Of a stretch of DNA of 32,000 nucleotides, positions 5,901 through 22,041 are shown one piece after another (positions within the stretch are counted from its first letter, which is position 1; every line of letters begins with the position of its first letter). The notes below the pieces were generated by a model that saw only the letters and a list, made by a program, of their open reading frames with translations, made no database searches and was not told the DNA's origin. The position numbers and the translations under genes were made by a program. Source of the stretch: Massilicoli timonensis (GTDB lineage: Bacteria; Bacillota_I; Bacilli_A; Erysipelotrichales; Erysipelotrichaceae); assembly GCF_900199515.1 (NCBI RefSeq), contig NZ_LT963434.1, positions 1,682,180 through 1,714,179 on the forward strand, in the 5' to 3' direction.

Positions 5901-5901
5901 A

Positions 5902-7063: not shown

Positions 7064-7149
7064 TCTTACTTTATTGCCGGTATAGAAGGATGTTCCCTGG
7101 GATATGCTGGAAGCAGGAGGTTTTCAATCTCTGTAGGCCAATCCAAGCT

Positions 7150-7175
7150 AAAAAAAGCGGCCAATAATGACCGCT
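7150..7175 (-). terminator. Rho-independent terminator of the XRE gene.
   Basis: On the minus strand: agcggtc-attatt-ggccgct (7 bp with one G-U pair) followed by T7, directly after the stop at 7176-7178. Confidence 0.65.
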
Positions 7176-7490
7176 TTACTTCCTGTTGTTCAGCTCTTTC
7201 ATAATGCCGAGAATATAGGCCATTGACTTAGGATCGAGCCGCTTTGCCTCTGCAACGAACTCTTGCAGGGTTTCCGGGTATGCGTTTCCTTCGTCAAAGA
7301 ATTCCAAAGGGGTTACGCCGAGATATTCGCAGATGTAGAAAAAAGACTGCATGGAGGGAAGTGATTTTTTGTTCTCAATGTTATTGATGTAGTTGTTCGC
7401 TTGCCCCAACGACAGCGACATGTCGCGTGCAGATACACCCTTTTGCGTCCTCAGCTTTGCCAGCCGTTCCGGGACAAAATCTTCGTACAT
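7176..7490 (-). CDS. XRE-family helix-turn-helix transcriptional regulator.
   Basis: Contains LAKLRTQKGVSARDMSLSLGQANNYINNIENKKSLPSMQSFFYICEYLGV. GGGAGGTG lies 8 nt before the ATG at 7490 (MYEDF...). Earlier in-frame ATGs lack proper spacing. Confidence 0.85.
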   Translation of the reverse strand: MYEDFVPERLAKLRTQKGVSARDMSLSLGQANNYINNIENKKSLPSMQSFFYICEYLGVTPLEFFDEGNAYPETLQEFVAEAKRLDPKSMAYILGIMKELNNRK

Positions 7491-7567
7491 CAACATCACC
7501 TCCCATTCTGTAATAGATTTTACCTCACACCTCTCCTTTATTCGCAAAATACAAGAGGGCGTTTCGG

Positions 7568-7596
7568 TTGACTTGCTAAAATAAATCTATTAAAAT
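7568..7596 (+). promoter_or_regulatory. Sigma-70-type promoter for the SLOG gene (TTGACT-17 nt-TAAAAT).
   Basis: -35 is at 7568-7573 and -10 at 7591-7596 with a 17-nt spacer. It lies ~40 nt upstream of the GGAGGA RBS and the ATG at 7638. Confidence 0.55.
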
Positions 7597-7637
7597 GAGT
7601 GGGATAAAAGTTTCAATCTATCGGAGGAAGAAAAGAG

Positions 7638-8129
7638 ATGGCAGAAAAGACTTGTTGTGTTACAGGACACAGAGATATACCGGCTGAACAGATAGATACC
7701 GTAAAATATGCTTTGCGGCGTGAAATTATAAAGGCGGTTTCGGATGGCTATACCGGGTTTATGACCGGTTTTGCGGATGGCGCGGACCAATACTTTGCGG
7801 AAATGGTCGTAAAGCTGCAAGAGGATTTTCCCAACCTGCGTCTGATTGCGGTGCTTCCCTATCGGAAACGGATGGACAGCTTAGAGTCCAGAGAGCAGAC
7901 AAAGGCGCTGCTTCATGCTTGCGCGGATGTCGTTGTCATTCAGGAGGAATACAGGCCCAATGTCTACGCCAAGCGCAACCGGTACATGGTGGAACACTCT
8001 GACCGGGTGATCGCCGTCTATGACGGGCGGGAAAAAGGTGGAACGGTAAATACGATTCGACTTACCCATAATATGAAGAAGGAATTGCGGGAGATTCCTG
8101 TGGGAGAAATCCGCGTACCAAGACTGTAG
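7638..8129 (+). CDS. SLOG-family protein (DUF1273 / YpsA-like).
   Basis: Contains CCVTGHRDIP...GFMTGFADGADQYFAE...NRYMVEHSDRVIAVYDGREKGGT, a pattern typical of DUF1273/YpsA-like SLOG proteins (from memory). Confidence 0.7.
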   Translation: MAEKTCCVTGHRDIPAEQIDTVKYALRREIIKAVSDGYTGFMTGFADGADQYFAEMVVKLQEDFPNLRLIAVLPYRKRMDSLESREQTKALLHACADVVVIQEEYRPNVYAKRNRYMVEHSDRVIAVYDGREKGGTVNTIRLTHNMKKELREIPVGEIRVPRL

Positions 8130-8205: not shown

Positions 8206-8340
8206 ATGTGGAACCTGATAACACACTTTCTGACTTTTGCAGGGGGAATGTCTGCCGGCGTTGTACTGATGTGTCTTTTGCAGGCCGGAAAGCAGGCTGA
8301 CGAACAGATGGAGGAACTGGATAGGAGGAACATGGAATGA
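8206..8340 (+). CDS. Small hydrophobic protein (44 aa, one predicted TM). It is not in the ORF track.
   Basis: AAGGAGGG (8191-8198) lies 7 nt before the ATG at 8206. Sequence: MWNLITHFLTFAGGMSAGVVLMCLLQAGKQADEQMEELDRRNME. Its TGA overlaps the next ATG (ATGA at 8337-8340). Confidence 0.6.
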   Translation: MWNLITHFLTFAGGMSAGVVLMCLLQAGKQADEQMEELDRRNME

Positions 8341-9362
8341 ATCAGGAATTTGCAGAATATATCAAAAGCCATATCCGGGAATATCTGTCTCAGGATTATA
8401 ATGACGCGGATATAACCCTGGAAGAAGTTACGAAGGGAAATGACCGGACACTTACCGGACTTATCATCCGAAAAGGCGGGGAAATGACTGTCCCGACAAT
8501 CTATCTGGAACCTTTTGAGGCAGAAAACAAAAAAGGTCGTCCGTTGGATGATATAATGCGGCAGATTGCAGAAATCAGAATGGAAAATAGTGTGGGAAAA
8601 CTCTTTCATGTGGATGACCTGAAAGATTATGAAATAGTCAGACCTATGCTTATGATCCGCTTGTGTGACCCGGAAAAGAACAAGGAATATCTCAAAGGAA
8701 AGCCCTATACCATCTGCGGGGAATTGGCGGCAACTTACCGGATTCAGGTCATGGAGAACGAGGAAGGAGTCGCTTCTGTCGCAGTAACGGACAGTATGCT
8801 GAATTTGTGGGGGATTACGCCGGAGCAGCTTCATCGTGATACAGTTCATGCGGAAAATGCCAAAAATCCTGTTATGTTTTACAGCATGGAGGATTTAATG
8901 TCAGAGCTTATGTTTTCCGTTGAGCCGAAAAACCTTTTTGACAGCCCGGAGCCTGTAGATACCGATTTTACACCCATGTATGTCTTGACAAATCCTGGCA
9001 GGCAGGATGGCGCTGGGGTAATTGCGCGGGACGGGGTACTGGATAAAATCGGTGAATTGGTCGGAAAGAATTTCTATGTCCTCCCTTCGTCTGTCCATGA
9101 GGTGCTGATCGTACCGGAAAATGGAAATACGCAGGCAAAAGAGCTGGAGGATATGGTTCGGGAGGTTAATGCTACTCAGGTGGCGCCGGAGGATTTACTT
9201 TCGGATAAGGTACAGTATTATGACCGGGCAGCAAAAACCCTGGGACGGAAACAGGAAAAAGGGCTTTTGGAACGTCTTTCCGAAAACAAAGCGCAGGTCC
9301 GGGAAATGGCGGCAAAGATGCCGGAAGAAAGGCGTACTGTGAAACAGGAACCATGTTTGTAA
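8337..9362 (+). CDS. Conserved ICE protein of unknown function (I recall the family as DUF5688-like; unverified).
   Basis: 341 aa with clean coding character, translationally coupled to the small upstream ORF. The N-terminus is MNQEFAEYIKSHIREYLSQDYNDADITLEEVTKGNDRTLTGL... Confidence 0.7.
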   Translation: MNQEFAEYIKSHIREYLSQDYNDADITLEEVTKGNDRTLTGLIIRKGGEMTVPTIYLEPFEAENKKGRPLDDIMRQIAEIRMENSVGKLFHVDDLKDYEIVRPMLMIRLCDPEKNKEYLKGKPYTICGELAATYRIQVMENEEGVASVAVTDSMLNLWGITPEQLHRDTVHAENAKNPVMFYSMEDLMSELMFSVEPKNLFDSPEPVDTDFTPMYVLTNPGRQDGAGVIARDGVLDKIGELVGKNFYVLPSSVHEVLIVPENGNTQAKELEDMVREVNATQVAPEDLLSDKVQYYDRAAKTLGRKQEKGLLERLSENKAQVREMAAKMPEERRTVKQEPCL

Positions 9363-9392: not shown

Positions 9393-9413
9393 CAAGAAAT
9401 GGAGGTTACGAGA

Positions 9414-11522
9414 ATGAAGTTGGTAATTGCGGAAAAGCCCTCTGTCGCTATGTCGCTGGCGGCGGTGTTGGGTGCGAATGAGAAAAAGGACGGCTACATG
9501 GAAGGCGGCGGGTATCTGGTAAGCTGGTGTGTCGGCCATCTTCTGGAGCTGGCACAGCCAGAAGCCTACGGAGAACAATATGCCAAATGGCGCTATGGAG
9601 ATTTGCCGATTCTGCCGGAGGAATGGAAGTATGAAGTACCGAAGGATAAGAAAAAGCAGCTTGGCCTTCTCTGCCGGCTGATGAAGGACAAACGGGTGGA
9701 TTCGGTTGTATGCGCCACTGACGCCGGACGCGAGGGTGAGCTGATCTTCCGGCTGGTGTATGAGTATGCCGGGTGCGGCAAACCGATGGAACGCCTTTGG
9801 ATTTCCAGTATGGAGGATGCGGCAATCCGGGACGGTTTTGAGCATTTGCGTCCCGGCCATGAGTATGACCGGCTGTATGATGCCGCTGTGTGCCGGGCCG
9901 GGGCTGACTGGCTGATCGGCATTAACGCCACTCGCCTTTTTTCTGTCCTGTATGGCGTCACGCTCAATGTTGGGCGCGTCATGTCCCCTACGCTGGCCCT
10001 TCTGGTACAGCGGGAGGCGGAGATTCAGGCATTTACGAGCAAGCCCTTTTATATACCGGAAATTACCTGCGGCGGATTTACAGCTTCTGGCGAAAAGCTG
10101 TCCGGGAAAAATGAAGCTGAAGAAATCCGTATAGCATGTGACGGGAAGGACGCTGCGGTGCTGTCCGTGGAAAAACAGGTCAAAACAGTCCAGCCTCCCC
10201 GCCTCTACGATCTGACGACCTTACAGCGGGAATGTAACCGCATTTATGGATATACGGCCCAGCAGACCCTTGACTATATACAGTTTCTTTATGAGAAAAA
10301 GCTGGCGACCTATCCCCGGACGGACAGCCAGTATTTGACTGAGGATATGCAGGCCACCGCTGCTTCCCTGATCCTCTGGCTGCGGGAACATATGCCTTTT
10401 GGAAAAGGCTGTGCCGGAGAACCGGATATTGACCGCGTGACCGATGGCAGCAAAGTTACCGACCATCACGCTATCATTCCTACGGTGGAGATTGCCCGGA
10501 CAGATCTGTCGGAGCTTCCTTCCGGGGAGCGGAATGTACTGACGCTGATTGCTGCAAGGCTTCTTTGCGCAACAGCCAAGGCCAACCAGTTTGAAACGGT
10601 AACGGCTGTGTTGGACTGTGAAGGCTATTTCTTTACGGCAAAGGGAAAGACCATATTGCAGGCCGGATGGAAGGAGGTGGAACGCCTTTACCGCATGGGC
10701 TTGAAACAGGATAAGGCAGAAGAAAAAGAGGACGAGGACGCTGCTCTGCCTCCGCTGCAGGAGGGCCAGACCTTTGAAAAGGTATCTGCGGGCGTCCGGG
10801 AAGGCAAAACTTCCCCGCCGAAGCATTATACCGAAGATTCCCTACTGGCAGCTATGGAAACGGCAGGCGCCGGGGATATGCCGGAGGATGCCGAGCGTAA
10901 GGGCTTAGGTACGCCGGCCACCCGTGCGGCCACGCTGGAAAAACTGGTTTCTGCCGGTTTCGTGCAGAGGAAGAAAAAACAGCTTATTCCCACGGAAAAA
11001 GGTACGAATCTGATTCTGGTCCTGCCAGACAATATCAAATCGCCTATGCTTACTGCGGAATGGGAGTCCATGCTGAAACAGGTGGAGCGCGGCGAAGTTT
11101 CTGCGGAGGCTTTTATGGAGGGGATTGCGGATATGAGCCGTGCGCTTGTAAAAAAACATACTGCGCCGGAGGAACGGTTTGCCGGATTGTTCCCGGATGC
11201 GAAAGGAAATGGACGTGAGGCTGTCGGGACCTGCCCTCGCTGCGGAGGAACCGTGTATGAGGGCAAAAAGGGATTTTTCTGCGATAACCGGGATTGTTCT
11301 TTTGCGCTCTGGAAGGATAACAGGTTTTTTTCCAGTAAGAAAAAGACCATTACAAAATCTGTGGCGGCTGCACTTCTGAAAGAAGGCCGCGTTTCCATAT
11401 CCGGGCTTTACAGTGAAAAGACCGGAAGAAACTATGATGCGGAGGTAATTCTGGACGATACCGGCGGTAAATATGTCAATTTCAAGCTGGAATTTCCGGC
11501 GAGAAAAGGCGGCAAAAAGTGA
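9414..11522 (+). CDS. topB: DNA topoisomerase III (type IA) with C-terminal zinc ribbons.
   Basis: MKLVIAEKPSVA (Toprim), CATDAGREGELIF, the active-site region ATYPRTDSQYL, and C-terminal CPRCGG...FFCDNRDC. GGAGG lies 8 nt before the ATG at 9414. Confidence 0.9.
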   Translation: MKLVIAEKPSVAMSLAAVLGANEKKDGYMEGGGYLVSWCVGHLLELAQPEAYGEQYAKWRYGDLPILPEEWKYEVPKDKKKQLGLLCRLMKDKRVDSVVCATDAGREGELIFRLVYEYAGCGKPMERLWISSMEDAAIRDGFEHLRPGHEYDRLYDAAVCRAGADWLIGINATRLFSVLYGVTLNVGRVMSPTLALLVQREAEIQAFTSKPFYIPEITCGGFTASGEKLSGKNEAEEIRIACDGKDAAVLSVEKQVKTVQPPRLYDLTTLQRECNRIYGYTAQQTLDYIQFLYEKKLATYPRTDSQYLTEDMQATAASLILWLREHMPFGKGCAGEPDIDRVTDGSKVTDHHAIIPTVEIARTDLSELPSGERNVLTLIAARLLCATAKANQFETVTAVLDCEGYFFTAKGKTILQAGWKEVERLYRMGLKQDKAEEKEDEDAALPPLQEGQTFEKVSAGVREGKTSPPKHYTEDSLLAAMETAGAGDMPEDAERKGLGTPATRAATLEKLVSAGFVQRKKKQLIPTEKGTNLILVLPDNIKSPMLTAEWESMLKQVERGEVSAEAFMEGIADMSRALVKKHTAPEERFAGLFPDAKGNGREAVGTCPRCGGTVYEGKKGFFCDNRDCSFALWKDNRFFSSKKKTITKSVAAALLKEGRVSISGLYSEKTGRNYDAEVILDDTGGKYVNFKLEFPARKGGKK

Positions 11523-11911
11523 GCGGGCCGCCCTGCCGTGAACTAACACGGTCTGAACGCGCGGCAATCCGAAGGCTGGTAACATATTTCTGTGCCAACT
11601 ATGATGACCGGGATAAGCTCTGCCTACCCTTAGACTGTTCCTGCTATATGCTGAATAAATGGTGGACCGGCTCACTGTGCCGGTACTTCCGTAAGGCGGT
11701 GCTTCCAACCGATCCGTCTTTAGAATCTGCCATTACGGGCGAGGACACATCTATGAAACAGAAAATATGCCCGGTCTGCGGGAAGGCTTATCTTCCGACA
11801 ACCAGCCAGGCATATTGTTCCGATGCCTGCCGCACTTTTGCGAGACGGAAATCCGAGCGGGAACGCAAGCGCAGAAAGCGGCAGAATCAGGGTAATGTGT
11901 CCGCAACTTAA
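11519..11911 (+). CDS. Cysteine-rich VLP-domain protein.
   Basis: Contains CANYDD...CLPLDCSCYMLNKWWTGSLCRYFRKAVLP and ICPVCGKAY...CSDACR. The GTG start overlaps the topB stop. Confidence 0.7.
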   Translation: MSGPPCRELTRSERAAIRRLVTYFCANYDDRDKLCLPLDCSCYMLNKWWTGSLCRYFRKAVLPTDPSLESAITGEDTSMKQKICPVCGKAYLPTTSQAYCSDACRTFARRKSERERKRRKRQNQGNVSAT

Positions 11912-12011
11912 TGAAAAAAGGGCTTGATTTGTAAGGCTTTCGAGAGCCGGTTTGACAGGCGCCTATATTAGAATACTCATGGTCTCTGAAATGGGGCTAA
12001 GCTGCGGACAA

Positions 12012-12039
12012 AGGCGCTTTGGGAGGCGCTTATTTTTTT
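12012..12039 (+). terminator. Weak terminator-like hairpin with a T7 run in the 11912-12138 intergenic region.
   Basis: aggcgc-tttgggag-gcgctt (6 bp including one G-T pair) followed by a-ttttttt. Confidence 0.35.
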
Positions 12040-12138
12040 GTCTTCCCAGGGATGACGCCAGACCTTTGCAGGTCTGGCAGATCGTCCCCTTCGGGAACGG
12101 CTGCGCGGCTGTGCCGCTGTCAAACACAGTCAGGAGGG

Positions 12139-12663
12139 ATGCTTATAGAAAAAATACCGATTACAGCAGATATTATGCGGATTGATACAGGGACGCAGAC
12201 CGTTGATATGCAGCAGATTGATAACCGACGTTTTATGTTCGACCCAGATACAGGGATATTGATTTTAGGCCGGCAGTATGCGGAAACGGACCTTGTGAAT
12301 TCCAGTCATGCGGCAGAGCTGGCCGGCGCCGGGATTACAAAGAATTTTGATCATTTTATCCGCGGCTGGATTGGCACTGGCGGGGACTATCCAAAGGGAA
12401 TCATTCATTTTGCCCCTTGTGTGGACGCGAGGAACATAAAGCTGTTTGAACGGGCTTTTGACACATTGGAGATGTTTCGGGACAACGGCGCGCTGGCGGG
12501 GACGGTCATACGCGGATTCGGGAACCGCTGGGAGCAGCCTCTATCCGATATTCTCACGGATTGCCGGGAGGCGGAGCGGAAACCCTCTGTCCGGGAACAG
12601 CTAAAGAAAATGCCGGAAAGGAAAGCTGCCCGGCAGAATAAGGAAAATCAACAGGAACGATAG
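12139..12663 (+). CDS. Hypothetical protein carrying the shared KPSV...ER C-terminal tail.
   Basis: Coding-like from MLIEKIPITADIM. AGGAGGG directly abuts the ATG at 12139, so the exact start is uncertain. The upstream part of track ORF 12019 is not coding-like. Confidence 0.6.
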   Translation: MLIEKIPITADIMRIDTGTQTVDMQQIDNRRFMFDPDTGILILGRQYAETDLVNSSHAAELAGAGITKNFDHFIRGWIGTGGDYPKGIIHFAPCVDARNIKLFERAFDTLEMFRDNGALAGTVIRGFGNRWEQPLSDILTDCREAERKPSVREQLKKMPERKAARQNKENQQER

Positions 12664-12674
12664 GAGGCGATTTT

Positions 12675-13313
12675 TTGAGTATCAGCACGATTACAACAGA
12701 TGATTTGCTCTGCATGGAAAGCAAAGAAGGTCTGATTTTGATGGGCTGCGGCGGAGACTTACAGGAATGGGTGGACGGAATCAATGAGATGTTCACGGAA
12801 TCGGGGATTTTGAAAGGCGGCAGCAGGTTTGAGGATGTTTCCGCTTTCCAGTATGACGGCATGACTTGTCTGCTCTATCCTTTTGAGGGCGTGAATCTGG
12901 ATATTGGAAAACTTGCCATGTGGCGTTTGCAGACCCATGAGAATTTTGGCGGCACATGGCTGTCTGATTTTGTACCCAACCGTTTGGGCGGCTTTATCGG
13001 AGAACCTTCGCCGGAACCGGAGAAACCGGATTGCGCTCTGATCGGACAGGACGGGAATATTTTTAACCTGGTAGGAATTGCCGCCCGTACTCTCCGGGAA
13101 TATGGCCGGAAGGATCAGGCAAAGGAAATGACAGACCGGGTGTTTGCTTCCGGCAGCTATGGAGAGGCGCTTTGTATCATTGGCGAGTATGTCAATATCA
13201 CCGATTCCAAGCCAGAGACAGAGCGGAAACCCTCTGTCCGGCAGCACTTGAAGGAAACCAAATCCGTAGAACCGTCCGGTCATGTAAAACCGGGCCGGCA
13301 GCAGGAACGATAA
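12675..13313 (+). CDS. Hypothetical protein carrying the shared KPSV...ER C-terminal tail.
   Basis: The TTG start at 12675 lies 7 nt after GGAGG (12663-12667), which overlaps the previous stop codon. Confidence 0.7.
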   Translation: MSISTITTDDLLCMESKEGLILMGCGGDLQEWVDGINEMFTESGILKGGSRFEDVSAFQYDGMTCLLYPFEGVNLDIGKLAMWRLQTHENFGGTWLSDFVPNRLGGFIGEPSPEPEKPDCALIGQDGNIFNLVGIAARTLREYGRKDQAKEMTDRVFASGSYGEALCIIGEYVNITDSKPETERKPSVRQHLKETKSVEPSGHVKPGRQQER

Positions 13314-13327
13314 CAGGAGGATGCAAT

Positions 13328-14254
13328 ATGGAACAGACATACGGTGTATGGGCGGTGCGAAGCGCCGCCTCTATCTTTGGACATGCGGAAAGCTGGTGCA
13401 AGGAGGACGGCAAGCCTTTGGAATTTGACAGCCGTGAGGCTGCCGAAACCTATGCCAGAGAAATGAGCAGCAGGACAACGGCCAATGTGCATTACTATGT
13501 GAGGAACAAAGAGCCGGAACCCGGCGCGGTGAAAAAGCGTGCCGCTCAGCCGGATTTGGATGCCCGCGCTCACGCTGAAACCACGCCGCGGAATGAAGCA
13601 GCGGAAAAACAAAATGAGATTCCCGGCAGGCAGATTATAGCGGAGCCGGACCCGCTGGTGGAAATCCGGTCTGCGGTACACAGCAATTATGCGGGCATGG
13701 TCGCTATGATGGGAGCGGATAACCGAGTATATCTGGGAAAAGAGGAACGCTGCCACTATGAGGATATGCAGCCCTCCTATTATGACAATCAGGACGGTTC
13801 CTTGTGCTTTGTCTGCGACCAGCCGGATATGTATTATTTTCTTTATGGCGAGGGGTGGGTGCATACCCAGGACGAAATGCTGAACCGGGGACTTACCATG
13901 CGGCAGTATGAAGAATTTGCCAGACTTCGGGACGGAGTGCTGTCGCAGTTTACGCTAAGCAGGGAAATCCTGTTTGCGGGGCAGCCCTTCCAGCCGCCCG
14001 AAAGCTATCTGCGTAATGCGGAGCTTTACGAGGAAGGCCAGACGGGAAATTATAATATGCTGGACGGCAGGCTGAACAATGAGCCCCCTGTCCGTCCCGA
14101 CCTGACGGACGGACAGACTTATGAGGAAATAAAAGAGCTTGCCCCAGAGACTTTGCCGGGGGATAAACCGTCCCTTATGGAACGCCTGAAAGCGGACCGC
14201 CCGGAGCGCGATGCCAGGCAGATCGTACCGCCTGATTTGGAAAGGGAACGGTGA
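13328..14254 (+). CDS. Hypothetical protein carrying a variant of the shared C-terminal tail.
   Basis: AGGAGG (13315-13320) lies 7 nt before the ATG at 13328 (MEQTYGVWAV...). The track ORF start at 13172 overlaps the previous gene and is rejected. Confidence 0.7.
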   Translation: MEQTYGVWAVRSAASIFGHAESWCKEDGKPLEFDSREAAETYAREMSSRTTANVHYYVRNKEPEPGAVKKRAAQPDLDARAHAETTPRNEAAEKQNEIPGRQIIAEPDPLVEIRSAVHSNYAGMVAMMGADNRVYLGKEERCHYEDMQPSYYDNQDGSLCFVCDQPDMYYFLYGEGWVHTQDEMLNRGLTMRQYEEFARLRDGVLSQFTLSREILFAGQPFQPPESYLRNAELYEEGQTGNYNMLDGRLNNEPPVRPDLTDGQTYEEIKELAPETLPGDKPSLMERLKADRPERDARQIVPPDLERER

Positions 14255-14257
14255 TAA

Positions 14258-14953
14258 ATGGGAGTAAAATTCGAGAATATAGATATATTGGATGCTTTAG
14301 GTCAGATTATGGAGTTGCATACACAGCACTATAAAGATGACTTTGATATGGATAAAGAACTGATCCCCAAATTGGCAGAATCAGCGGACCCGGAGGACAG
14401 GCGCCTTCTCTGGATGTCAAGGCCCTGCGGCACCTATACCCTGCGGGAGCGGGAAGTCTATCTGGATGGCAGCTATGAAAATAATGTATGGAAATTTTAC
14501 CATGAGCAGACCAAAGACCCGGTTCTTGCCTTTGCCCTCTCCATAAAAGGGATTCAGGACGGCAAAGTGATGGGGAATCTTTATCCGCTGGATTATCCCG
14601 ACCATGTGGAGCGTGTAAAGCTGCTGACCTGCCCGATTGAAAAGGTAACGGTTACTTTCGAGGATGGCGCTGTTGTTACCATGCCGTATGAGACACGCAG
14701 ACGATTTATCAATGAGCTTTCGCCGGAGCATGGGAATCCCAAATTTATGCTCTACAGCCCCGGAAGTGAGCAGGAGCTTGCCATGATTCTGAAACGGGAG
14801 CGGTTTAAGCGTTCCTACCATGCAAAGCCCGGAAATATAAAAGAGTATATTGACGGCTTGCAGAAAGGCACTGTGCGCGGTCAGTTGAAGGAGCTGCAAC
14901 CGTCTGCTGTCTCTCATAAAACTACCCGCCACAAGAACGGGCCGGAACGATGA
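14258..14953 (+). CDS. Hypothetical protein carrying a variant of the shared C-terminal tail.
   Basis: The ATG is 3 nt after the previous stop. The stop overlaps the mobC start (ATGA at 14950-14953). Confidence 0.7.
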   Translation: MGVKFENIDILDALGQIMELHTQHYKDDFDMDKELIPKLAESADPEDRRLLWMSRPCGTYTLREREVYLDGSYENNVWKFYHEQTKDPVLAFALSIKGIQDGKVMGNLYPLDYPDHVERVKLLTCPIEKVTVTFEDGAVVTMPYETRRRFINELSPEHGNPKFMLYSPGSEQELAMILKRERFKRSYHAKPGNIKEYIDGLQKGTVRGQLKELQPSAVSHKTTRHKNGPER

Positions 14954-15294
14954 CAGGCAAGCGTGACAAGCACTCGGTACGGGTAGAATTTGTCGTTACC
15001 GAGCAGGAGGCGGTTCTCATAAAAGAGCGCATGGCGGAGCTGGGAATTACAAATCTTTCCGCATATCTGCGCAAGATGGCGGTGGACGGCTATATCATCC
15101 ATCTGGATATGAGCGATATTCAGGAAATGATACGGCTCCTTCGTATCTGCTCCAATAACTTAAACCAGTACACCCGGCGGGCCAATGAGACCGGCAGCGT
15201 CTATGCCGCCGATGTGGAGGATTTGTGCGCCAGACTGGACGGCCTGTGGGATGGTATGGAAAAGCTGCTTCGGGGATTTGCGAACATTTCATAA
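14950..15294 (+). CDS. mobC: MobC-family relaxosome accessory protein.
   Basis: Contains VRVEFVVTEQEAVLIKERMAELGITNLSAYLRKMAV...SNNLNQYTRRANETG, the typical MobC pattern. Confidence 0.85.
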   Translation: MTGKRDKHSVRVEFVVTEQEAVLIKERMAELGITNLSAYLRKMAVDGYIIHLDMSDIQEMIRLLRICSNNLNQYTRRANETGSVYAADVEDLCARLDGLWDGMEKLLRGFANIS

Positions 15295-15385
15295 ACAGAA
15301 AGAAAAACCGTTGCTTTTCCGAACCGGCCACAGTAAAATTTTGATAGAGGAACAGATCATGTTCCCACGAAAGGAGGCTTGGCTT

Positions 15386-15676
15386 ATGCGGCTGGTGTTC
15401 AAAATATTAGCGTTACCCTTTGTCCTGGTTACGGGAATCCTCTATCTGGTGTGCAAATTTCTGGTAATTACATCCGGGGCGGTGTTGGGAATCCTGTCCG
15501 GCATTGTTTTTCTGGCGTCGCTGGTTCTGTTCTTTGCTGCGGGCCTGTGGGCGGGGCTTTCTTGGCTGGTAATTGCATTTCTGATCAGCCCCTACGGTCT
15601 GCCGATGGCGGCGGCCTGGCTGACTGGAAAAATCGGCGGCATAAACTACGCGCTCAAGGATTTCATTTTTTCATAA
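15386..15676 (+). CDS. Small integral membrane protein (96 aa, about 3 TM).
   Basis: GGAGG (15373-15377) lies 8 nt before the ATG at 15386. Sequence begins MRLVFKILALPFVLVTGILYLVCKFLVITSGAVLGILSGIVFLASLVLFFAAGLW... Confidence 0.7.
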   Translation: MRLVFKILALPFVLVTGILYLVCKFLVITSGAVLGILSGIVFLASLVLFFAAGLWAGLSWLVIAFLISPYGLPMAAAWLTGKIGGINYALKDFIFS

Positions 15677-15684
15677 ACTTTTGC

Positions 15685-15716
15685 GGCGGGACATTTCGGT
15701 GTCCCGCCCTTTTCTT
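15685..15716 (+). terminator. Rho-independent terminator.
   Basis: ggcgggaca-tttcgg-tgtcccgcc (perfect 9 bp) followed by c-ttttctt. Confidence 0.85.
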
Positions 15717-15734
15717 ATATTCGGAGGTATCAGA

Positions 15735-16244
15735 TTGAAAGACAATACAGCTATCTATCCTTATTCTGCGTCTTATGCGCGTGAGCATGGGGAGTTGGAT
15801 CAGTACCGCGTTTCCTATAGAGCCAATATCGCCTGCAAGGAGGCAATCGAGCAGGCCATTGCCGCTCACTACCATGATAACCGCCTCGGCACGGAGGCAG
15901 TACATCAGGTCTTGGAACAGTTTGGTTATGACCGGATGTTTTATGTGCTTGCGGTCACAGTCCGGCAAAAAGATTGGGACGGGCGCATTTCCCGTGATAA
16001 TAAAGCCTGGGCGAAAACGATTCCGGTTTATGAAAATCCGGGCAGCTCTGTCCGTGACAGTAATATTTACTTTGTGGTGGACCGCAGCCACCCAGGGCTT
16101 ACGGATTTATTTCTCACACAGGCCAGACGGGAGTATGCACAGGCCCAGGAGAAGAAAACTTCTGTCCGTGACAGTCTGAACAGGGGCAGCAGGCAGAAGG
16201 CGTACAGCGATAAACCGAAACCGCACAGACAGCCGGAACGATGA
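15735..16244 (+). CDS. DUF3849-like protein (from memory) carrying the shared C-terminal tail.
   Basis: The TTG start at 15735 lies 7 nt after GGAGG (15723-15727). Sequence begins IYPYSASYAREHGELDQYRVSYRANIACKEAIEQAI... Confidence 0.65.
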   Translation: MKDNTAIYPYSASYAREHGELDQYRVSYRANIACKEAIEQAIAAHYHDNRLGTEAVHQVLEQFGYDRMFYVLAVTVRQKDWDGRISRDNKAWAKTIPVYENPGSSVRDSNIYFVVDRSHPGLTDLFLTQARREYAQAQEKKTSVRDSLNRGSRQKAYSDKPKPHRQPER

Positions 16245-16274: not shown

Positions 16275-17684
16275 ATGGCGACCACACGGCTGATGCCACT
16301 GCATATTGGAAAAGGCCGGGATATTTCCACGGCCATTGCAGACGTCATTGATTATGTGGAAAATCCGCAGAAAACGGATTTTGGAAAATTCATTTATGGG
16401 TATGAGTGCGATACCAGGATTGCGGATGCGGAATTTCTTCTTTCCAAGCGACAGTATTTTAACCAGACCGGAAGGAGTCAGGGCGCGGACGATGTGATTG
16501 CCTACCATCTCCGGCAGGCGTTCAAACCCGGCGAGGTCACGCCGGAAGAAGCGAATCAGATTGGGCGGGAGCTTGCGTTGAAGCTCACAAAAGGCAATCA
16601 CGCATTTGTCGTCTGCACCCATATCGATAAACACCATGTTCATAACCACATCATAATCAATTCTACGACGCTGGACTGTCAGAAGAAATTCCGCAACTTC
16701 TGGGGCTCCACCTGGGCAATCCGGCGCATGAATGACAAGCTCTGTCTGGAACATGGCTTATCGATTGTAGAGGACCCGAAACCGAGCCGGACCCACTATG
16801 GCACATGGCTGGGCAGTGAAAACCAACCCTCCTTCCAGGAGCAGATACGCCGGGCAATCGACGCGGCCATGGAAGAAAAGCCGAAGGATTTTGAAGAACT
16901 TTTGAAAAAGCTGGAAGCTGTCGGTATTGAAATTAACCGGGAACGAAAGCATCTCCGTTTCCGTGTACCGGGTCAGGAGAAATATACCCGGTGCGATACG
17001 CTCAAAGGAGATTATACCGAGCAGGCCATAAAAGAACGGATTGCCGGAACCCGTACTGTAAAGCCCCGGCGTACTGCTCCCACAAAACCGGTTTCCAAAG
17101 TCGGTCTGCTGGTGGATATTGAGGCGGCAATCCGGGCCGGCAAAGGTCCGGGATATGAACGCTGGGCGAAGGTGTTTAATCTGAAACAGCTATCCCAGGC
17201 GGTAATCTATCTCAAAGAGCATGGCAATATGAGTTATGAGGATTTGCAGGAAAGAACATCTGCGGTTACTGACCGTTTTAACGCACTGTCCACACAGATT
17301 AAAGACATGGAATCACGGATGACGGCCAACGGCGAATTGCAGAAACAGATCGTGAACTATGTGAAAACACGGGCGGTCTATATCGAATACCGCAAGGCCG
17401 GTTACAGCAAAAAATTCCGTTCTGAGCACGAGGCGGAAATCCTTCTGCACCAGGCGGCTAAGAAGCATTTTGACAGCCTGGGAATTACAAAGCTGCCCTC
17501 AGTCAAGTCCTTACGGGAGGAATATGCCGGACTTCTGGAACAGAAGCGGAAAACCTATGCTGCCTATAAGCAGGCCAGAGCAGAAATGAAGGAACTTCAT
17601 AATGTCAAGGCCAATGTGGATTATCTTCTGGAATTTCCCGCCGGACAGGAACCACAGCGGGATATGCAGAAATCGCGACAATAG
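16275..17684 (+). CDS. Relaxase / mobilisation nuclease (MobA/VirD2 family).
   Basis: An N-terminal relaxase domain with THIDKHHVHNHIIIN (histidine triad) and a long helical C-terminal region. Confidence 0.9.
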   Translation: MATTRLMPLHIGKGRDISTAIADVIDYVENPQKTDFGKFIYGYECDTRIADAEFLLSKRQYFNQTGRSQGADDVIAYHLRQAFKPGEVTPEEANQIGRELALKLTKGNHAFVVCTHIDKHHVHNHIIINSTTLDCQKKFRNFWGSTWAIRRMNDKLCLEHGLSIVEDPKPSRTHYGTWLGSENQPSFQEQIRRAIDAAMEEKPKDFEELLKKLEAVGIEINRERKHLRFRVPGQEKYTRCDTLKGDYTEQAIKERIAGTRTVKPRRTAPTKPVSKVGLLVDIEAAIRAGKGPGYERWAKVFNLKQLSQAVIYLKEHGNMSYEDLQERTSAVTDRFNALSTQIKDMESRMTANGELQKQIVNYVKTRAVYIEYRKAGYSKKFRSEHEAEILLHQAAKKHFDSLGITKLPSVKSLREEYAGLLEQKRKTYAAYKQARAEMKELHNVKANVDYLLEFPAGQEPQRDMQKSRQ

Positions 17685-17706
17685 TTTCCTTCTGCTTTCG
17701 GTTTCA

Positions 17707-17841
17707 GCGTTCCAGCGGAACGCGCAGCCATCGCCGCAGGCGATGATCTCAGGGGTTTGGGGATATGTCACCAACAAGCATTTTAGGCAGGAATACCGGG
17801 AACGGTTTCCTGCCTAAAATACGCAATCTTACGGAAGATTG
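17707..17841. other. Cluster of four perfect hairpins immediately after the relaxase gene. It could be oriT, an element end, or a terminator stack.
   Basis: The four hairpins are: gcgttcc-agc-ggaacgc (17707-17723); catcgcc-gca-ggcgatg (17729-17745); ttttaggcaggaa-N13-ttcctgcctaaaa (13 bp, ~17780-17819); gcaatctt-acgg-aagattgc (~17822-17841). Confidence 0.5.
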
Positions 17842-17907
17842 CATTGCTTGCCGGTAGTATCGTGAATTCCTAATAACCAGTTTGTACTCATTGTTTTTAT
17901 TGCGCCA

Positions 17908-17955
17908 TTGACAAGAGTCCCATTTGAGACTATACTTGAAAAGTACCAAATGGGA
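17908..17955 (+). promoter_or_regulatory. MarR-gene promoter (TTGACA-17 nt-TATACT) overlapped by a 9-bp inverted repeat (putative MarR operator).
   Basis: -35 is at 17908-17913 and -10 at 17931-17936. The inverted repeat tcccatttg (17918-17926) / caaatggga (17947-17955) brackets the -10. Confidence 0.6.
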
Positions 17956-18053
17956 TTCTTTGTGAAGATAATGAGCAACTACTTTCTATTGTCTTTGTAA
18001 ATTCAATTTGGTCTGTATCTATATTGGATTACCTATTTTGAAGGAGAAGCTTT

Positions 18054-18518
18054 ATGAGGCATACAGCCAAAGAACAAATTGAAACCATCTATCGCCAGAT
18101 CAATGCGATATCCGCCCTTTACCATACCGCTATCGCTCATACGGAAGTCACCGATAACGAATTTTGGATATGGTATTCCCTAATCGTTGTGGAGGGCGAG
18201 CAATCTCAGCAGAGTATATGTTCTGCATGGTCTCTTTCAAAGCAGACCGTAAACAGAATTGTTTCCCAAATGGTTAAAAAAGGTTATGCGGTTTTGGAAG
18301 CGGTTCCCGGCACACGTAACCGAAAAGTAATCCGGCTTACAGATACAGGAAGAAAGTACGGTGAAAGTATTGTTCTTCCAATTTTTACGGCGGAACAAAG
18401 AGCTATGTCCAGGCTAAGCATGGACGAAATAACAGCCTGTACGAAAGCTTATGAAAAATATCTTAGCATTTTAAAAGAAGAAATCCCCGGAGCAGATATT
18501 GACCCGCTTAAACCTTAA
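18054..18518 (+). CDS. MarR-family transcriptional regulator.
   Basis: Winged-helix region QQSICSAWSLSKQTVNRIVSQMVKKGYAVLEAVPGTRNRKVIRLTDTGRKY. A GAAGGAGAAG RBS is present. Confidence 0.85.
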   Translation: MRHTAKEQIETIYRQINAISALYHTAIAHTEVTDNEFWIWYSLIVVEGEQSQQSICSAWSLSKQTVNRIVSQMVKKGYAVLEAVPGTRNRKVIRLTDTGRKYGESIVLPIFTAEQRAMSRLSMDEITACTKAYEKYLSILKEEIPGADIDPLKP

Positions 18519-20655
18519 AGGAAAACGATAGGAGGGCCTTATGATTAACATACTTGTAGTGGAAGATGACGAAAAATTGAACCAGATTATCTGTACCTAT
18601 CTTACGAAAAATAATTATAATGCGAAAGGCTGCTGTAACCCTGTGGAGGCGTATGACCTGCTTTTTGCAGAAAGCTATGACCTGATTATTTCCGATATTA
18701 TGATGCCGAAGATTAACGGGTTCGATTTTGCTAGCGAAATCCGTCAACAGAATCCGAATGTGCCAATTCTGTTTATTACAGCATTGGATGATCTTTCTTC
18801 TAAACAAAAAGGGTTTTATGCTGGAGTAGATGACTATATGGTAAATGCTATAGTAATCTAAATCACACATTGGCGGCATATACGACACCACCGGCAACAG
18901 GGGTTCTTCCTCTATGTACCCGGCTGCGCCGAGTACGTCGGAATAATCCTCCGTGGCGCAGCCTTTGATATATACCTGGCATTTCTGTTTGGTGCCATCA
19001 GTAGTAATATAAATTCGGTCAACAATCGAATGAACTAAAGTAAACAGAGCTTCAGGCTGTGCGTCCTTTGCAAACTCCTCAAAGGACAGCAGCCTTTTTT
19101 TCATGCCATTCAGTTCATGGACGAGATACTGATTTTCAGATTGAGTATCCTCCATTCGGCGCAGCGCAGCTTCGCACTTTGCCAGCTCGTCCGTCAATTC
19201 CTTTATATCATCCTGGATGAAGCGTTTAAGGGCGTCATCTGCCTCACGCAGATTTCGTACCTGTGCGGCAATATCCGCATTTAAGCGTTCAATAGCCTTT
19301 TTGGTTTCCTGGTACTCTTTCTCGCTTTGGTCAGTACGGATCATGCTGGCAACCCTGTTCTCCAAAAGTTGCCGGTAATAGTCGGAATGTTCTTCTTGCA
19401 GGCTGGAGAGTGAGTGGATAACAAATTCATCAAGCGTTACACCCTCAACCCCTTTGAAGGTACATTCCTTTGCCCTCACCCCAGGGCAGGCATACTTGAA
19501 GCGGGGCTTGCCATTCGTCCAGCGATTGGATTCTGGCAGTACACGCAGCCGTTTTCCGCAAATAGGGCAATACATTAAGCCGGACAACAAAGCATTGGTT
19601 TTTCTATGGGGCCGGTTATACTTTTCTGCAATCTCATCCAGCATATTTTGTGTTTCCACCCATTTCCGGGAGCTGATAAATCCCTCATGGCGACCCACAG
19701 AAACAATCCATTCACTAATGGGTTTCCTGGTAAGAAGCTGTGAGAATTTGGGATTGAAAAAGGTGGAATCCTCATCCTCAACTTTCATCTGGTCGGTCTT
19801 ATTATAAGCAGTAAGCCCATGCTGACCATCAAAGTCGGACGGTTCTCCAAACAGGTTCCCGTCATGCTCCAGAAAATAGTTGTAGGAATATTCATCTGCC
19901 ACGCAGTAGATTGGATTCCGCAGAATCAGCCGGATGGTGGATGTGGTAAACTTCGCGCCATGCTTCGTTTCATATTTCTCACTGATGATATTTGCCGTCT
20001 GCAAGAGAGAACGTGTCTCCCAGAAGGTGCTGTAGATTTCCAATACAATCTCTTTTTCTTCCTGCACAGGGACGAGAAAGCTAATGGCACTCTTATTTTT
20101 TCCACTTCCCGTTGTCACACGTTGGGAAGAAAAGCCGGTCGGTGTTTTGCCTCCCAGCCAGCGCCCATCTTTTGCCAGCTCCATCAAGTTATCCTGGATA
20201 CGTTCAGTTAGAATATCGCGTTCAAATTCTGCGATAATGGCCAGCACCTGGATGATGATTTTGGATGTGCTGATCCGCGTATTGATATTGTTGGAGCAGA
20301 CCAAAAGCGTCACATCGTGACGCTCAAAGTATTCCAGAAGCCGCATGAGGTCGGAAGTTTTACGGCTGATTCGGTCTAATTTGTAACAGGCCACAGCCTT
20401 GATTTTCCCCATCTCAATGTCCCGGAGTAGCCTTTGAAAATCTGGGCGGTCGGAATAGTAACCACTTAAGCCTTTGTCCTCATACCGGGCAAATTCGTAA
20501 TCTTCCGATAGAGAAAGCTGGTTGATAGCATAGTCGGCACTTTGCTTAAACTGAACACCAATGCTATCTCCCTTATTTGTAATGCGGGATTTTCTCGCAT
20601 ATATGGCCACCAATCTATCATCAATTCCCATCTGGATTCTTGCTTTGCGTTTCAT
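18508..20655 (-). CDS. Large serine recombinase. The ORF runs past the element junction (~18846) to a stop at 18508.
   Basis: Resolvase-type N-terminus (VAIYARKSRITNKGDSIGVQ...ISRKTSDLMRLLEYF), recombinase domain, zinc ribbon (CPICGKRL...YACPG) and coiled-coil. AAGGAGG lies 10 nt before the ATG at 20655. The last ~112 codons are antisense to the response-regulator fragment. Confidence 0.85.
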   Translation of the reverse strand: MKRKARIQMGIDDRLVAIYARKSRITNKGDSIGVQFKQSADYAINQLSLSEDYEFARYEDKGLSGYYSDRPDFQRLLRDIEMGKIKAVACYKLDRISRKTSDLMRLLEYFERHDVTLLVCSNNINTRISTSKIIIQVLAIIAEFERDILTERIQDNLMELAKDGRWLGGKTPTGFSSQRVTTGSGKNKSAISFLVPVQEEKEIVLEIYSTFWETRSLLQTANIISEKYETKHGAKFTTSTIRLILRNPIYCVADEYSYNYFLEHDGNLFGEPSDFDGQHGLTAYNKTDQMKVEDEDSTFFNPKFSQLLTRKPISEWIVSVGRHEGFISSRKWVETQNMLDEIAEKYNRPHRKTNALLSGLMYCPICGKRLRVLPESNRWTNGKPRFKYACPGVRAKECTFKGVEGVTLDEFVIHSLSSLQEEHSDYYRQLLENRVASMIRTDQSEKEYQETKKAIERLNADIAAQVRNLREADDALKRFIQDDIKELTDELAKCEAALRRMEDTQSENQYLVHELNGMKKRLLSFEEFAKDAQPEALFTLVHSIVDRIYITTDGTKQKCQVYIKGCATEDYSDVLGAAGYIEEEPLLPVVSYMPPMCDLDYYSIYHIVIYSSIKPFLFRRKIIQCCNKQNWHIRILLTDFASKIEPVNLRHHNIGNNQVIAFCKKQVIRLHRVTAAFRIIIIFRKIGTDNLVQFFVIFHYKYVNHKALLSFSFKV
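18541..18861 (+). pseudogene. OmpR-type response regulator truncated after the receiver domain (3' part displaced by element insertion).
   Basis: The receiver is intact up to GVDDYMV, then reads NAIVI-stop where family members continue KP[FI].... No DNA-binding domain follows. The recombinase-bearing element starts at ~18846. Confidence 0.75.
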
Positions 20656-20722
20656 ATTCAAATATCCTCCTTTCCAGGACGGTGAGAAAACCGCCCTTTT
20701 CTCCATTATTATAGGAACGTCC

Positions 20723-20908
20723 TCATTTTTGCTCAAAGGTGCGATTATCTTCTTTCAATGTAGAAAGCAATGCTTTTAATTCTTCTGCGCTAAAGTCCCT
20801 CAATTCACGAACGAGGAACTCGGCGCGTTTTTCAGCGAACTGGCGCAGGGATTGCTCGCTGTCTTTCCCGGTATGGAATACGATCTCCATAGGCTGCCCC
20901 CTACTCAT
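20723..20908 (-). CDS. Small helical protein (61 aa) between the MazF-like gene and the recombinase. It could be an antitoxin or a recombination directionality factor.
   Basis: Its ATG overlaps the MazF-like stop (ATGA at 20905-20908). Sequence: MSRGQPMEIVFHTGKDSEQSLRQFAEKRAEFLVRELRDFSAEELKALLSTLKEDNRTFEQK. I do not recognise a family. Confidence 0.5.
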   Translation of the reverse strand: MSRGQPMEIVFHTGKDSEQSLRQFAEKRAEFLVRELRDFSAEELKALLSTLKEDNRTFEQK

Positions 20909-21429
20909 TGGTGCCTCTTGACCACTTCATAGTCAAAACCGGGCCGCTGGCCGCAGTAAGTGCAGATGTCCTTTTCCACCCGGCCAGGGTGAACCCTGCG
21001 CAAATAATAAGAGCCTGTGCCGTAGAAGTTGTTGGCACAGGCCGGACAAAGGCACATGATTAAATTTGGGGGTGTTTCTTCGATCAATCCCACGCTGACA
21101 GCCAGGGCGCGGTTGAGCCGGCGAATATGCTGTTCCTCCAGATGTCCGATGTACGTTTCCAGCCGCCTTTTATCAATGGTGCGGAGCTGCTCCATCAGCA
21201 CCAGAGAAGGCAGCTCCAGGCCGTTCTCTGCTTTGAGAAGGTAATGGGTAGGCAGCTTGGCCTTGGCGTCCACTTTGCTGGATATGGCTGCCACAATGAC
21301 CGTGGGGCTGTGCTTGTTTCCAGTATCATTCTGAATAATCAGGACCGGGCGATAACCTTCCTGCTCGGAGCCGATTCCCCGGCCCAAATCGGCATAGTAC
21401 ATATCGCCGCGATGATATGTTCTGTTCAT
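20905..21429 (-). CDS. PemK/MazF-family endoribonuclease toxin domain fused to a C-terminal CxxC...CxxC zinc-ribbon extension.
   Basis: The N-terminal ~115 aa closely resemble MazF/EndoA (RGDMYYADLGRGIGSEQEGYRPVLIIQNDTGNKHSPTVIVAAISSK...LPTHY...LMEQLRTIDKRRL). An extra ~55 aa follow: CLCPACANNF...CTYCGQRPGFDY. A GGGAGG RBS is present. Confidence 0.8.
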   Translation of the reverse strand: MNRTYHRGDMYYADLGRGIGSEQEGYRPVLIIQNDTGNKHSPTVIVAAISSKVDAKAKLPTHYLLKAENGLELPSLVLMEQLRTIDKRRLETYIGHLEEQHIRRLNRALAVSVGLIEETPPNLIMCLCPACANNFYGTGSYYLRRVHPGRVEKDICTYCGQRPGFDYEVVKRHQ

Positions 21430-21987: not shown

Positions 21988-22032
21988 ATAAAAAGAACCT
22001 CTCACCCTATTTGCCGTTGAGGGTGAGAGGTT
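21988..22032 (-). terminator. Rho-independent terminator of sigma copy 1.
   Basis: aacctctcaccc (21996-22007) pairs with gggtgagaggtt (22021-22032), a perfect 12 bp. On the minus strand it is followed by ctttttat. Confidence 0.85.
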
Positions 22033-22041
22033 GCACAACGA

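Follow-up and report, generated by a model that had tools for sequence, protein, structure and literature searches.

A bipartite C-terminal tail on unrelated proteins of a Tn1549-family integrative and conjugative element: a candidate recruitment signal for the conjugation apparatus

Several conjugative plasmids transfer proteins as well as DNA: ArdC of pSa, the TraC1/Sog primases and the F-plasmid proteins ParA, ParB, SSB and PsiB all travel in this way (PMC8406263; cited in PMC5512222), in Gram-negative systems and without a recognisable sequence tag common to the substrates. In its passages on polyvalent proteins, the study of Iyer, Burroughs, Anand, de Souza and Aravind (2017; PMC5512222) predicts that these proteins are delivered together with DNA through type IV secretion systems (T4SSs) and act against the defences of the recipient. 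A 2025 review (PMC12857230), in the part that deals with the matter, still asks whether Gram-positive conjugation delivers proteins, and how substrates would be chosen. Elements of the Tn1549 family, according to passages of a 2025 survey of Faecalibacterium integrative and conjugative elements (ICEs; PMC12084326), are abundant in gut Lachnospiraceae and Oscillospiraceae and spread vanB vancomycin resistance. Here we analyse 32,000 nucleotides of the Massilicoli timonensis genome (contig NZ_LT963434.1, positions 1,682,180 to 1,714,179; this whole stretch is hereafter the window), which are the relaxase-proximal, DNA-processing end of a B-type ICE of this family. Five genes of the window (A to E), unrelated in their bodies, encode proteins that finish with the same tail: a bipartite, largely disordered C-terminal short linear motif of about 30 residues. 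The tail is real, strongly non-random and widely conserved and, as far as we have found, undescribed in the literature searched.

A preliminary description of the window had reported the common ending on the proteins that stop at 12663, 13313, 14254, 14953 and 16244; all five reading frames and their endings are as described. Likely starts of the coding sequences were set from ribosome-binding sites (RBSs) and homologues, and all the genes concerned lie on the plus strand. Gene A (12139-12663) encodes 174 residues from an ATG at 12139 and ends with the tail KPSVREQLKKMPERKAARQNKENQQER (12580-12660); gene B (12675-13313) encodes 212 residues from a TTG that follows AGGAGG and ends with KPSVRQHLKETKSVEPSGHVKPGRQQER (13227-13310). 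Neither belongs to a Pfam family, and nor does gene D (14258-14953; 231 residues), which ends with KGTVRGQLKELQPSAVSHKTTRHKNGPER (14864-14950). Gene C (13328-14254; 308 residues) has a DUF4316 motif at residues 226-287, directly upstream of its tail KPSLMERLKADRPERDARQIVPPDLERER (14165-14251), and in gene E (15735-16244; 169 residues) the Pfam domain DUF3849 stops before the tail KTSVRDSLNRGSRQKAYSDKPKPHRQPER (16155-16241). A looser version had been suspected on the protein encoded at 8337-9362 (gene F; 341 residues; DUF5688): this diverged tail, EKGLLERLSENKAQVREMAAKMPEERRTVKQEPCL (9255-9359), is genuine and conserved, and orthologues retain QEK[GS][LV]L[EG][RQ]L followed by a stretch that ends in E[PV][SC]L. 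Among the proteins searched, gene B gave the sole PHROGs match (phrog_1933, function unknown) and NCBIfam gave none.

The tails of A to E read [KR]-[PT]-[ST]-[VIL]-[RM]-x-x-L, then a stretch rich in K, A, Q, E and P, then E-R-stop; counted from the end, the core Ser or Thr is residue 25 to 27 in all five proteins. The bodies are mutually unrelated: with the tails removed, the best BLAST E-value among them is about 0.2. That of A corresponds to the domain with which ArdA/LPD34 polyvalent proteins begin (its residues 13-139 align at 57-61% identity with residues 1-126 of polyvalent proteins of 1865 and 1239 aa, at loci L212 and L180), that of C is related to internal parts of polyvalent proteins, and D is homologous to a conserved 314-317-aa protein of Tn1549. 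Core and terminal E-R-stop occur together in A to E only, that is in five of the 222 long stop-to-stop open reading frames (ORFs) in the six frames of the window.

The preliminary description had tied the tail to the genes that bracket mobC and the relaxase gene, and this association does not hold: the tail occurs throughout the element, including on the backbone protein PcfB. The remaining genes of the ICE were taken from overlapping contigs with 88-93% identity to the left end of the window, and with them the tail is found on at least five or six further proteins of the same element. PcfB ends in TRPSLLTQLHKFKELAQALGRDRVKNKEHGGPER and is the genuine PcfB of this ICE, with a full DUF3801 match; a SpoVG-like protein ends in AEKPSLTGALKDNAGKVKTQPAKSAPAKNEQAR, an LPD1 protein in GRPSVMDQLAANRPADKKSPAQTFSRKNHEPEI and a DUF3846-YodL protein in LSVREQLDSAKKQAAQTAAKAPDKKPKEPERS; an LPD34 protein has a related ending with its core 11-19 residues from the end; and the DUF5688 protein has the diverged but conserved tail of gene F. 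The carriers are unrelated accessory and anti-defence proteins of a very common gut-bacterial ICE family; five of them (A, C and the LPD34, DUF3846-YodL and LPD1 proteins) have a body homologous to a polyvalent-protein domain. The SpoVG-domain protein, of 147-152 aa, is encoded between the VirB6 and MT-A70 methylase genes (L083, 852-1295; L103-L127, about 10790-11244), and its C-terminal extension is a version of the tail.

Classical Tn1549 (pMG2200) has three carriers: PcfB, a 1306-aa polyvalent protein with the architecture ArdA-ArdC_N-M78-LPD25-YodL-DUF4316 and the ending EKEKPSIRAQLNAAKTEQAKQPPAREKSKGLEVE, and the downstream 314-aa protein, which is 38-39% identical to D over about 210 residues. 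A Monoglobus ICE has the same three. Scanning metagenomes with the D family yielded 80 loci, in which the tail is present on about 70 D-type proteins and on about 78 polyvalent, A-type or C-type proteins. All of the 120 best database homologues of D have the tail; in the 103 that match a strict core, defined as [KRQ][PT]S[IVL][RM]xx[LIM], exactly 28 residues follow the Ser. The tail is likewise at the end of 113 of 120 database homologues of the DUF3849 protein E, and is kept in 36 orthologues of A and 44 of B.

Where the tail stands in a polypeptide was examined with the strict core in the window and in related loci. Across 5,647 six-frame ORFs with a length of 100 aa or more (1.31 million residues) the core occurs 300 times within the last 45 residues and three times anywhere else, which excludes chance. 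All 300 C-terminal cores fall into seven body clusters, all on ICE-linked loci: six families of ICE accessory proteins and a single reverse-transcriptase ORF. The latter (L071, 956-2548, minus strand; 530 aa, RVT_1) ends in EKKPSIRERLEQGKKECANRQATPQARGKSEPEL beside a truncated relaxase gene; it could be a tail-bearing reverse transcriptase, or an ORF that reads from an intron into a tailed gene.

Polyvalent proteins show the rule most clearly. In 44 of them, each at least 900 aa long (62,657 residues), all 44 occurrences of the core are C-terminal and none is internal. The A domain, when it is part of a polyvalent protein, is N-terminal, lacks the tail and is followed by ArdA or LPD34; when it stands alone, it is tailed. 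In Gemmiger sp. An50 (L067, 6351-7427) A and B are fused in a 358-aa ORF, a short linker takes the place of A's tail, and a single tail stands at the end. D homologues of Tn1549-type (A-type) elements have an extra domain of about 75 aa and still have the tail at their extreme end. Fused domains thus have one tail in common, and the same domains encoded as separate genes each have their own. One tail per polypeptide, always last, is what a signal for sorting or recruitment would show, and is not to be expected of a linker between domains or of a generic interaction motif. These data also decide against the reading that the tail is a functionless inter-domain linker, left over from the break-up of polyvalent proteins. 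The bodies of A, C and the LPD34 and DUF3846-YodL proteins, being homologous to parts of polyvalent proteins, speak for such an origin, but the motif is never found between domains in the 44 polyvalent proteins, the tail is under purifying selection, and among its carriers are PcfB and SpoVG-like proteins, neither of them a fragment of a polyvalent protein: we consider this reading refuted and give it practically no credence.

If the tail is a peptide signal, orthologues should retain it and selection should act on the protein. When the relaxase was used to scan one genome per species, 80 loci were obtained, from Lachnospiraceae, Oscillospiraceae and others, and the tail is conserved in orthologues of about 80 species. 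A hidden Markov model (HMM) of the five window tails, run on all 9,813 six-frame ORFs of these 80 loci, gave 213 matches of at least 10 bits, 196 of which end no more than three residues from the C-terminus; the matches of at least 8 bits make up five body families (36-53 loci and 20-36 distinct tails each) and two singletons. Orthologues in related elements therefore keep the tail, and keep it at the C-terminus. Ratios of non-synonymous to synonymous polymorphism (pN/pS) are 0.31-0.50 in tails and 0.19-0.35 in bodies, so that purifying selection in the tails is somewhat weaker than in the bodies. The residues K, P, S, V/L, R/M, L and K of the core and the terminal E-R are near-invariant, and across orthologues they are encoded by two to six synonymous codons; the codon of the final Arg is CGA, CGG, CGC, AGG, CGT or AGA, depending on family and lineage. 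Different tails share little DNA, the longest common word being 6-14 bp in most loci and gene pairs. Because invariant residues are encoded by several synonymous codons and the tails have so little DNA in common, the constraint is on the peptide.

The converse possibility, that similarity is kept at the level of nucleic acid (by translational coupling, RBS context, recombination or gene conversion) without any function of the peptide, draws on three observations. Firstly, an exact identity of 21 bp connects the tails of A and B (12574-12594 = 13221-13241), as the preliminary description had noted when it proposed that the tail is a mobile DNA module. Secondly, the Glu codon is mostly GAA and the final Arg codon often CGA. 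Thirdly, the genes are indeed tightly chained: the gaps are 11 nt between A and B, 14 nt between B and C and 3 nt between C and D, the stop of D overlaps the start of mobC (ATGA), and 30 nt precede the relaxase gene. The identity of A and B, however, is restricted to the lineage of the window (5 of 34 loci) and has the look of a single short conversion; this one patch is all that stands behind the mobile module, and we reject a general mobility of the tail as DNA. Codon variation at invariant residues and the shortness of shared words run counter to the nucleic-acid explanation, as do the differing downstream contexts (RBS with a gap of 11-14 nt, 3-nt gap, ATGA overlap, 30-nt gap). A-type elements, with tails that have other codons and end not in ER but in LEV, MEV or LERS, also contradict a constraint at the level of RNA or RBS. 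The nucleic-acid explanation as a whole is largely refuted, and its remaining probability is very small.

Among the sequences sampled, the tail is restricted to the ICE family. It is missing from the non-ICE flanks of three chromid loci (L129-L131), from a 94.6-kb non-mobilizable Subdoligranulum plasmid whose relaxase is 42% identical, and from pCF10, though PcfB and the same VirD4 family (CD1115) are present there; the PcfB of pCF10, too, lacks the tail. A tail-only profile, searched against 1.84 billion representative proteins, gave 35 matches in a single stretch, all C-terminal and all in families B, C or E, and thus no new body families in that set. Twelve further matches, in several stretches (P0127, P0129, P0133 and others), were discarded as unrelated, low-complexity, eukaryote-like tandem repeats of 15 residues, (KADPEKKKASVRDSY)n. 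Since diverged tails score 6-14 bits, far below database noise in the profile search, and are undetectable by it, this search gives only a lower bound on specificity. A word-indexed protein search with a 45-aa tail alignment as query returned six gene fragments only.

The tail itself has three parts of unequal conservation. The core, [KR]-P-S-[VIL]-[RM]-x-x-L, is followed by a poorly conserved middle rich in K, A, Q, E, R and P and mostly basic, and then by the tip; in 165 of 173 distinct tails (about 95%) the core Ser is followed by 24-31 residues, and in 146 of the 173 a Glu stands at -2 or -3. Tips differ by element type, xER in B-type and LEV, MEV or LERS in A-type elements, with PEI also recorded, and the tips of PcfB follow those of the effectors: GPER in B-type, GLEL or EVSL in A-type. 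In AlphaFold2 models of D and E the bodies are modelled with confidence, the last helix fades into low confidence where the core lies, and the predicted confidence (pLDDT) is 33-47 over the final 16-20 residues (D: body about 90, residues 216-231 below 50; E: residues 150-168 disordered). The sequence P-S followed by V/I-R-x-x-L would fit a helix N-cap with one amphipathic turn.

This composition invites the suggestion that the tail is a basic nucleic-acid-binding extension in the manner of histone H1 (PKKAAAKKK-type), which would hold the proteins non-specifically on the single strand being transferred or on incoming DNA. Residues K, A, Q, R and P abound after the core, where the mean net charge is +2.6 (range -2 to +7); A-type tails read APKKAAAKKK; and several carriers are DNA-directed (ArdC_N, SpoVG-like, ArdA). 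Yet the basic stretch is the least conserved part of the tail, and some tails are neutral or acidic after the core (down to -2, as in gene C). With the PS[VI]RxxL core and the Glu tip as the conserved parts, specific protein recognition is indicated instead, and a DNA tether appears improbable.

Position at the C-terminus, disorder and occurrence on many unrelated proteins would equally suit a degron or a processing tag, by which the proteins would be made short-lived or less active in donor or recipient, and polyvalent proteins do contain M78-type peptidase domains. The ssrA-type C-terminal degron of bacteria is the hydrophobic LAA. No such hydrophobic tripeptide terminates the tails, whose tips are xER, LEV, MEV, LERS and PEI; no obvious dedicated protease is encoded in the regions examined of B-type (split-gene) elements; and a degron has no need of a fixed distance between core and tip. 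We regard a degron as quite improbable.

What the tail may do is suggested by the company it keeps. We propose, giving the idea an even chance of being right on the strength of sequence comparisons, that it is a bipartite C-terminal recruitment signal for the VirD4/PcfB apparatus, which would mark proteins for transfer to the recipient. The tail would be read, once per polypeptide, by a conserved component of the element's own transfer apparatus, with the VirD4-type coupling protein as the most likely candidate, possibly together with PcfB. Tagged proteins would then be docked at the type IV secretion channel and pass into the recipient with, or ahead of, the DNA. The cargo would comprise ArdA/ArdC-type anti-restriction modules, YodL, LPD domains, the SpoVG-like nucleic-acid binder, DUF3849 and others, and the accessory proteins would be stand-alone versions of the domains that are strung together in the giant polyvalent anti-restriction proteins of related elements. 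Polyvalent proteins with ArdA, ArdC and YodL domains are among the carriers, and for proteins of this kind Iyer et al. (PMC5512222) predicted, on independent grounds, a passage with the DNA through the T4SS. That PcfB has the same tail suggests a place for PcfB at the same docking site, as adaptor, plug or co-substrate. The preliminary description had likewise proposed a position-fixed recruitment or secretion signal, which could for example be read by a coupling protein of VirD4 or TcpA type. The fixed position, the protein-level constraint, the rule of one tail per polypeptide and, in the sample, the confinement to a T4SS-bearing family support it in part, and the coupling protein is of VirD4 type and not of TcpA type; the receptor and the translocation are what we infer.

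Several observations weigh against recruitment for transfer. The relaxase, the canonical T4SS substrate, has no tail, and nor has MobC. The family of the type IV coupling protein (T4CP) does not by itself predict the tail, because pCF10 has the VirD4 (CD1115) and PcfB families and no tail. The backbone protein PcfB may be no substrate at all, in which case the tail might be an instruction to bind some partner in the donor and not one for export. The motif matches no described T4SS signal consensus, and part of the similarity of tips within an element could stem from gene conversion (the 21-bp patch). Finally, all loci were fetched by way of ICE anchors, so the restriction to ICEs is limited to what the flanks, the two control plasmids and one stringent profile search, blind to diverged tails, can tell.

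Some of these observations would be explained if the tail were a docking peptide for a partner on the donor or recipient side, unrelated to export, through which an accessory complex is assembled on the element's DNA; PcfB, topoisomerase III, an SSB, the M78 peptidase of the polyvalent protein or a host factor would be candidate partners. The positional and conservation data are the same for this reading as for recruitment to the secretion channel, and both the tail on backbone PcfB and the absence of a tail from pCF10, with its T4CP of the same family, sit well with it. Its difficulty is that a single copy at the strict extreme C-terminus is more typical of sorting signals, whereas interaction motifs tolerate internal positions, and none of the candidate partners is pinned down. 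We hold docking of this kind to be unlikely, while giving it some weight.

If recruitment to the VirD4/PcfB apparatus is the function, then the tail might be the first T4SS signal to be defined by sequence in a conjugative element of Gram-positive bacteria: a portable tag, about 30 residues long, by which VirD4 and PcfB would recognise a whole repertoire of anti-defence and establishment proteins for delivery into the recipient. We rate this stronger claim as possible, at a little under even chances. In that event PcfB, itself tailed, would serve the coupling protein as gatekeeper or adaptor, the tailed proteins together would make up the effector repertoire of Tn1549-family elements, and the tail would offer a handle for the delivery of proteins into gut Firmicutes. 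The delivery of polyvalent proteins predicted in 2017 had no molecular handle; a short, portable and sharply defined tail gives it one, which can be deleted, point-mutated or moved onto a reporter, and by which candidate substrates can be listed from sequence alone. It also assigns a testable role to PcfB, an uncharacterised backbone protein, and explains why each split version of the polyvalent proteins has the same ending. Even as a mere motif for assembly in the donor, the tail would mark out a hub of interactions within the transfer apparatus.

The setting of the tailed genes is that of a B-type element. The backbone of B-type Tn1549-family ICEs, as passages of the Faecalibacterium survey describe it (PMC12084326), consists of PcfB, VirD4 (CD1115 type), Maff2, VirB6 (CD1112 type), PrgI, VirB4 (CD1110 type), a cell-wall hydrolase, a CD1107-like protein, topoisomerase III, MobC and a MOBP relaxase. 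The window encodes topoisomerase III (9399-11522) and the Cys-rich VLP protein (11519-11911), both part of the family backbone, a NikA-like relaxosome accessory protein (mobC, 14950-15294) and a MOBP-type relaxase with a MobA/VirD2 nuclease domain (16275-17684); the gene of a small membrane protein (DUF5699, 15386-15676) lies, with gene E, between the last two. None of these proteins has the tail, and all their genes are on the plus strand. Because mobC and the relaxase gene point the same way as the rest, including the topoisomerase III gene, the arrangement is of the B type described for Faecalibacterium ICEs in those passages. The remainder of the backbone is found in the overlapping contigs, which encode a DUF3991/Toprim primase, the LPD1, LPD34 and DUF3846-YodL proteins, PcfB/DUF3801, Maff2, VirB6, the SpoVG-domain protein, an MT-A70 methylase, PrgI, VirB4, an M23/NlpC-P60 hydrolase and a CD1107-like protein; there pcfB lies directly 5' of the gene for the VirD4-type coupling protein and overlaps its start. 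The gene set of the element is that of annotated Tn1549.

Pfam matches in the upstream part of the window are, in order, a SpaA-repeat adhesin with a sortase domain, AbiE, ThyX, dUTPase, a YpsA/SLOG protein and DUF5688; then follow topoisomerase III, the Cys-rich VLP protein, A to D, MobC/NikA, DUF5699, E (DUF3849) and the MobA/VirD2-type relaxase. The adhesin is split across two overlapping reading frames (2-910 and 795-3173), the second of which has a VPQTG sorting motif and a membrane anchor and then continues, free of stops, into the sortase domain; one ORF of 1485 aa covers both adhesin and sortase in related contigs. Between adhesin and DNA-processing genes lies ICE cargo (3837-8129): an AbiEi/AbiEii toxin-antitoxin pair, the thymidylate synthase ThyX, a dUTPase, a helix-turn-helix regulator and the YpsA/SLOG protein. 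An exact-sequence look-up of the AbiEi protein matched no contig. Upstream of gene A is a non-coding gap of 228 bp (11912-12138) that contains a perfect 9-bp inverted repeat, a hairpin at 12057-12078 (GCCAGACCT/AGGTCTGGC), which is a candidate origin of transfer, terminator or single-strand promoter.

Similarity to the 80 related ICE loci stops directly 3' of the relaxase gene (17700-20736). Here a serine-recombinase ORF on the minus strand (20736 to 18508) extends some 190 codons past its recognised domains, and the extension is antisense to a truncated response-regulator receiver ORF (18541-18861); the overlap may mark the end of the element or an insertion into a regulator gene. Beyond the recombinase (20905-31775) are a MazF-type toxin, a sigma-70 region-4 protein, three ABC-2 permeases with an ABC ATPase, and a histidine kinase/response regulator pair, a region that we liken to modules of the peptide-resistance type and that is common to almost none of the related loci.

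How does the tail compare with what has been described? The preliminary description had mentioned a Pfam domain of unknown function that might cover the motif. DUF4316 (PF14195) is not the tail but a separate short motif upstream of it: among the five proteins it matches C only (32.9 bits, residues 226-287, ending at the start of the tail) and leaves A, B, D and E unmatched, and polyvalent proteins have it 30-400 residues ahead of the tail (in Tn1549, at 898-935 of 1306 aa). DUF3801/PcfB (PF12687) matches no window protein over the whole domain above its gathering score; its only match is a weak one to the tail of A (profile positions 98-129 of 131, 17.5 bits against a cut-off of 24.1, E = 0.0045). 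Parts of the motif are thus buried in existing models, the DUF4316 match touching the start of the tail in C and the end of DUF3801 weakly matching A; neither model defines the tail and neither has an assigned function. Literature searches on DUF4316, on DUF3849/DUF3801/DUF5688, on PcfB and on Gram-positive translocation signals gave no description of it, and the passages on the relevant terms in the polyvalent-protein study (PMC5512222) and the 2025 Faecalibacterium survey (PMC12084326) mention no common C-terminal tail.

The carriers, as far as those passages of PMC5512222 set out the domains, are polyvalent proteins of the kind described there or single-domain versions of them (ArdA, ArdC_N, M78 peptidase, LPD1, LPD25, LPD34, YodL). 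To that account the tail adds a sorting element, in our reading, and it extends to PcfB, SpoVG-like, DUF3849, DUF5688 and D-family proteins. With the cargo of conjugative plasmids the carriers share that they are element-encoded anti-restriction or DNA-metabolism proteins acting early in the recipient; ArdA and ArdC_N are tailed here.

Substrates of VirB/VirD4 systems (Agrobacterium VirE2, VirF and VirD5; the Bep tails of Bartonella; PMC6362355, PMC10025392) have signals that, like the tail, occupy the extreme C-terminus over some tens of residues, are hydrophilic, disordered and net positive, occur on unrelated proteins encoded together with the T4SS, and have a VirD4-family coupling protein as presumed reader. 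Indeed, 300 of 303 cores lie in the last 45 residues, where such signals fall in the last 50 or so, and the tail is unstructured (pLDDT 33-47), hydrophilic and positive (mean +2.6). VirB/VirD4 signals differ in being charge patterns (R-x7-R-x-R-x-R) with no conserved helix-cap core; that consensus is absent from the tails, which are Lys-rich and have the PS[VI]RxxL core at a fixed distance from a Glu tip, in a monoderm (Firmicutes) element and with translocation still putative.

The C-terminal signals of Legionella Dot/Icm substrates (the E-block) are read by the DotL-DotM-IcmSW coupling complex. They resemble the tail in being C-terminal with acidic residues near the end, and their reading by adaptors associated with a coupling protein is a possible analogy for PcfB. 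The E-block belongs to a type IVB system of other organisms and consists of clustered Glu residues some 10-17 positions before the end; the tail is rich in K, A and Q in that region, and has instead a lone Glu at -2 or -3, preceded by a basic stretch and, further upstream, by the core. C-terminal sorting tags on T4SS-associated proteins are therefore known from Gram-negative systems, and what appears to be new, judged from sequence, is this particular motif and its setting in a Gram-positive ICE.

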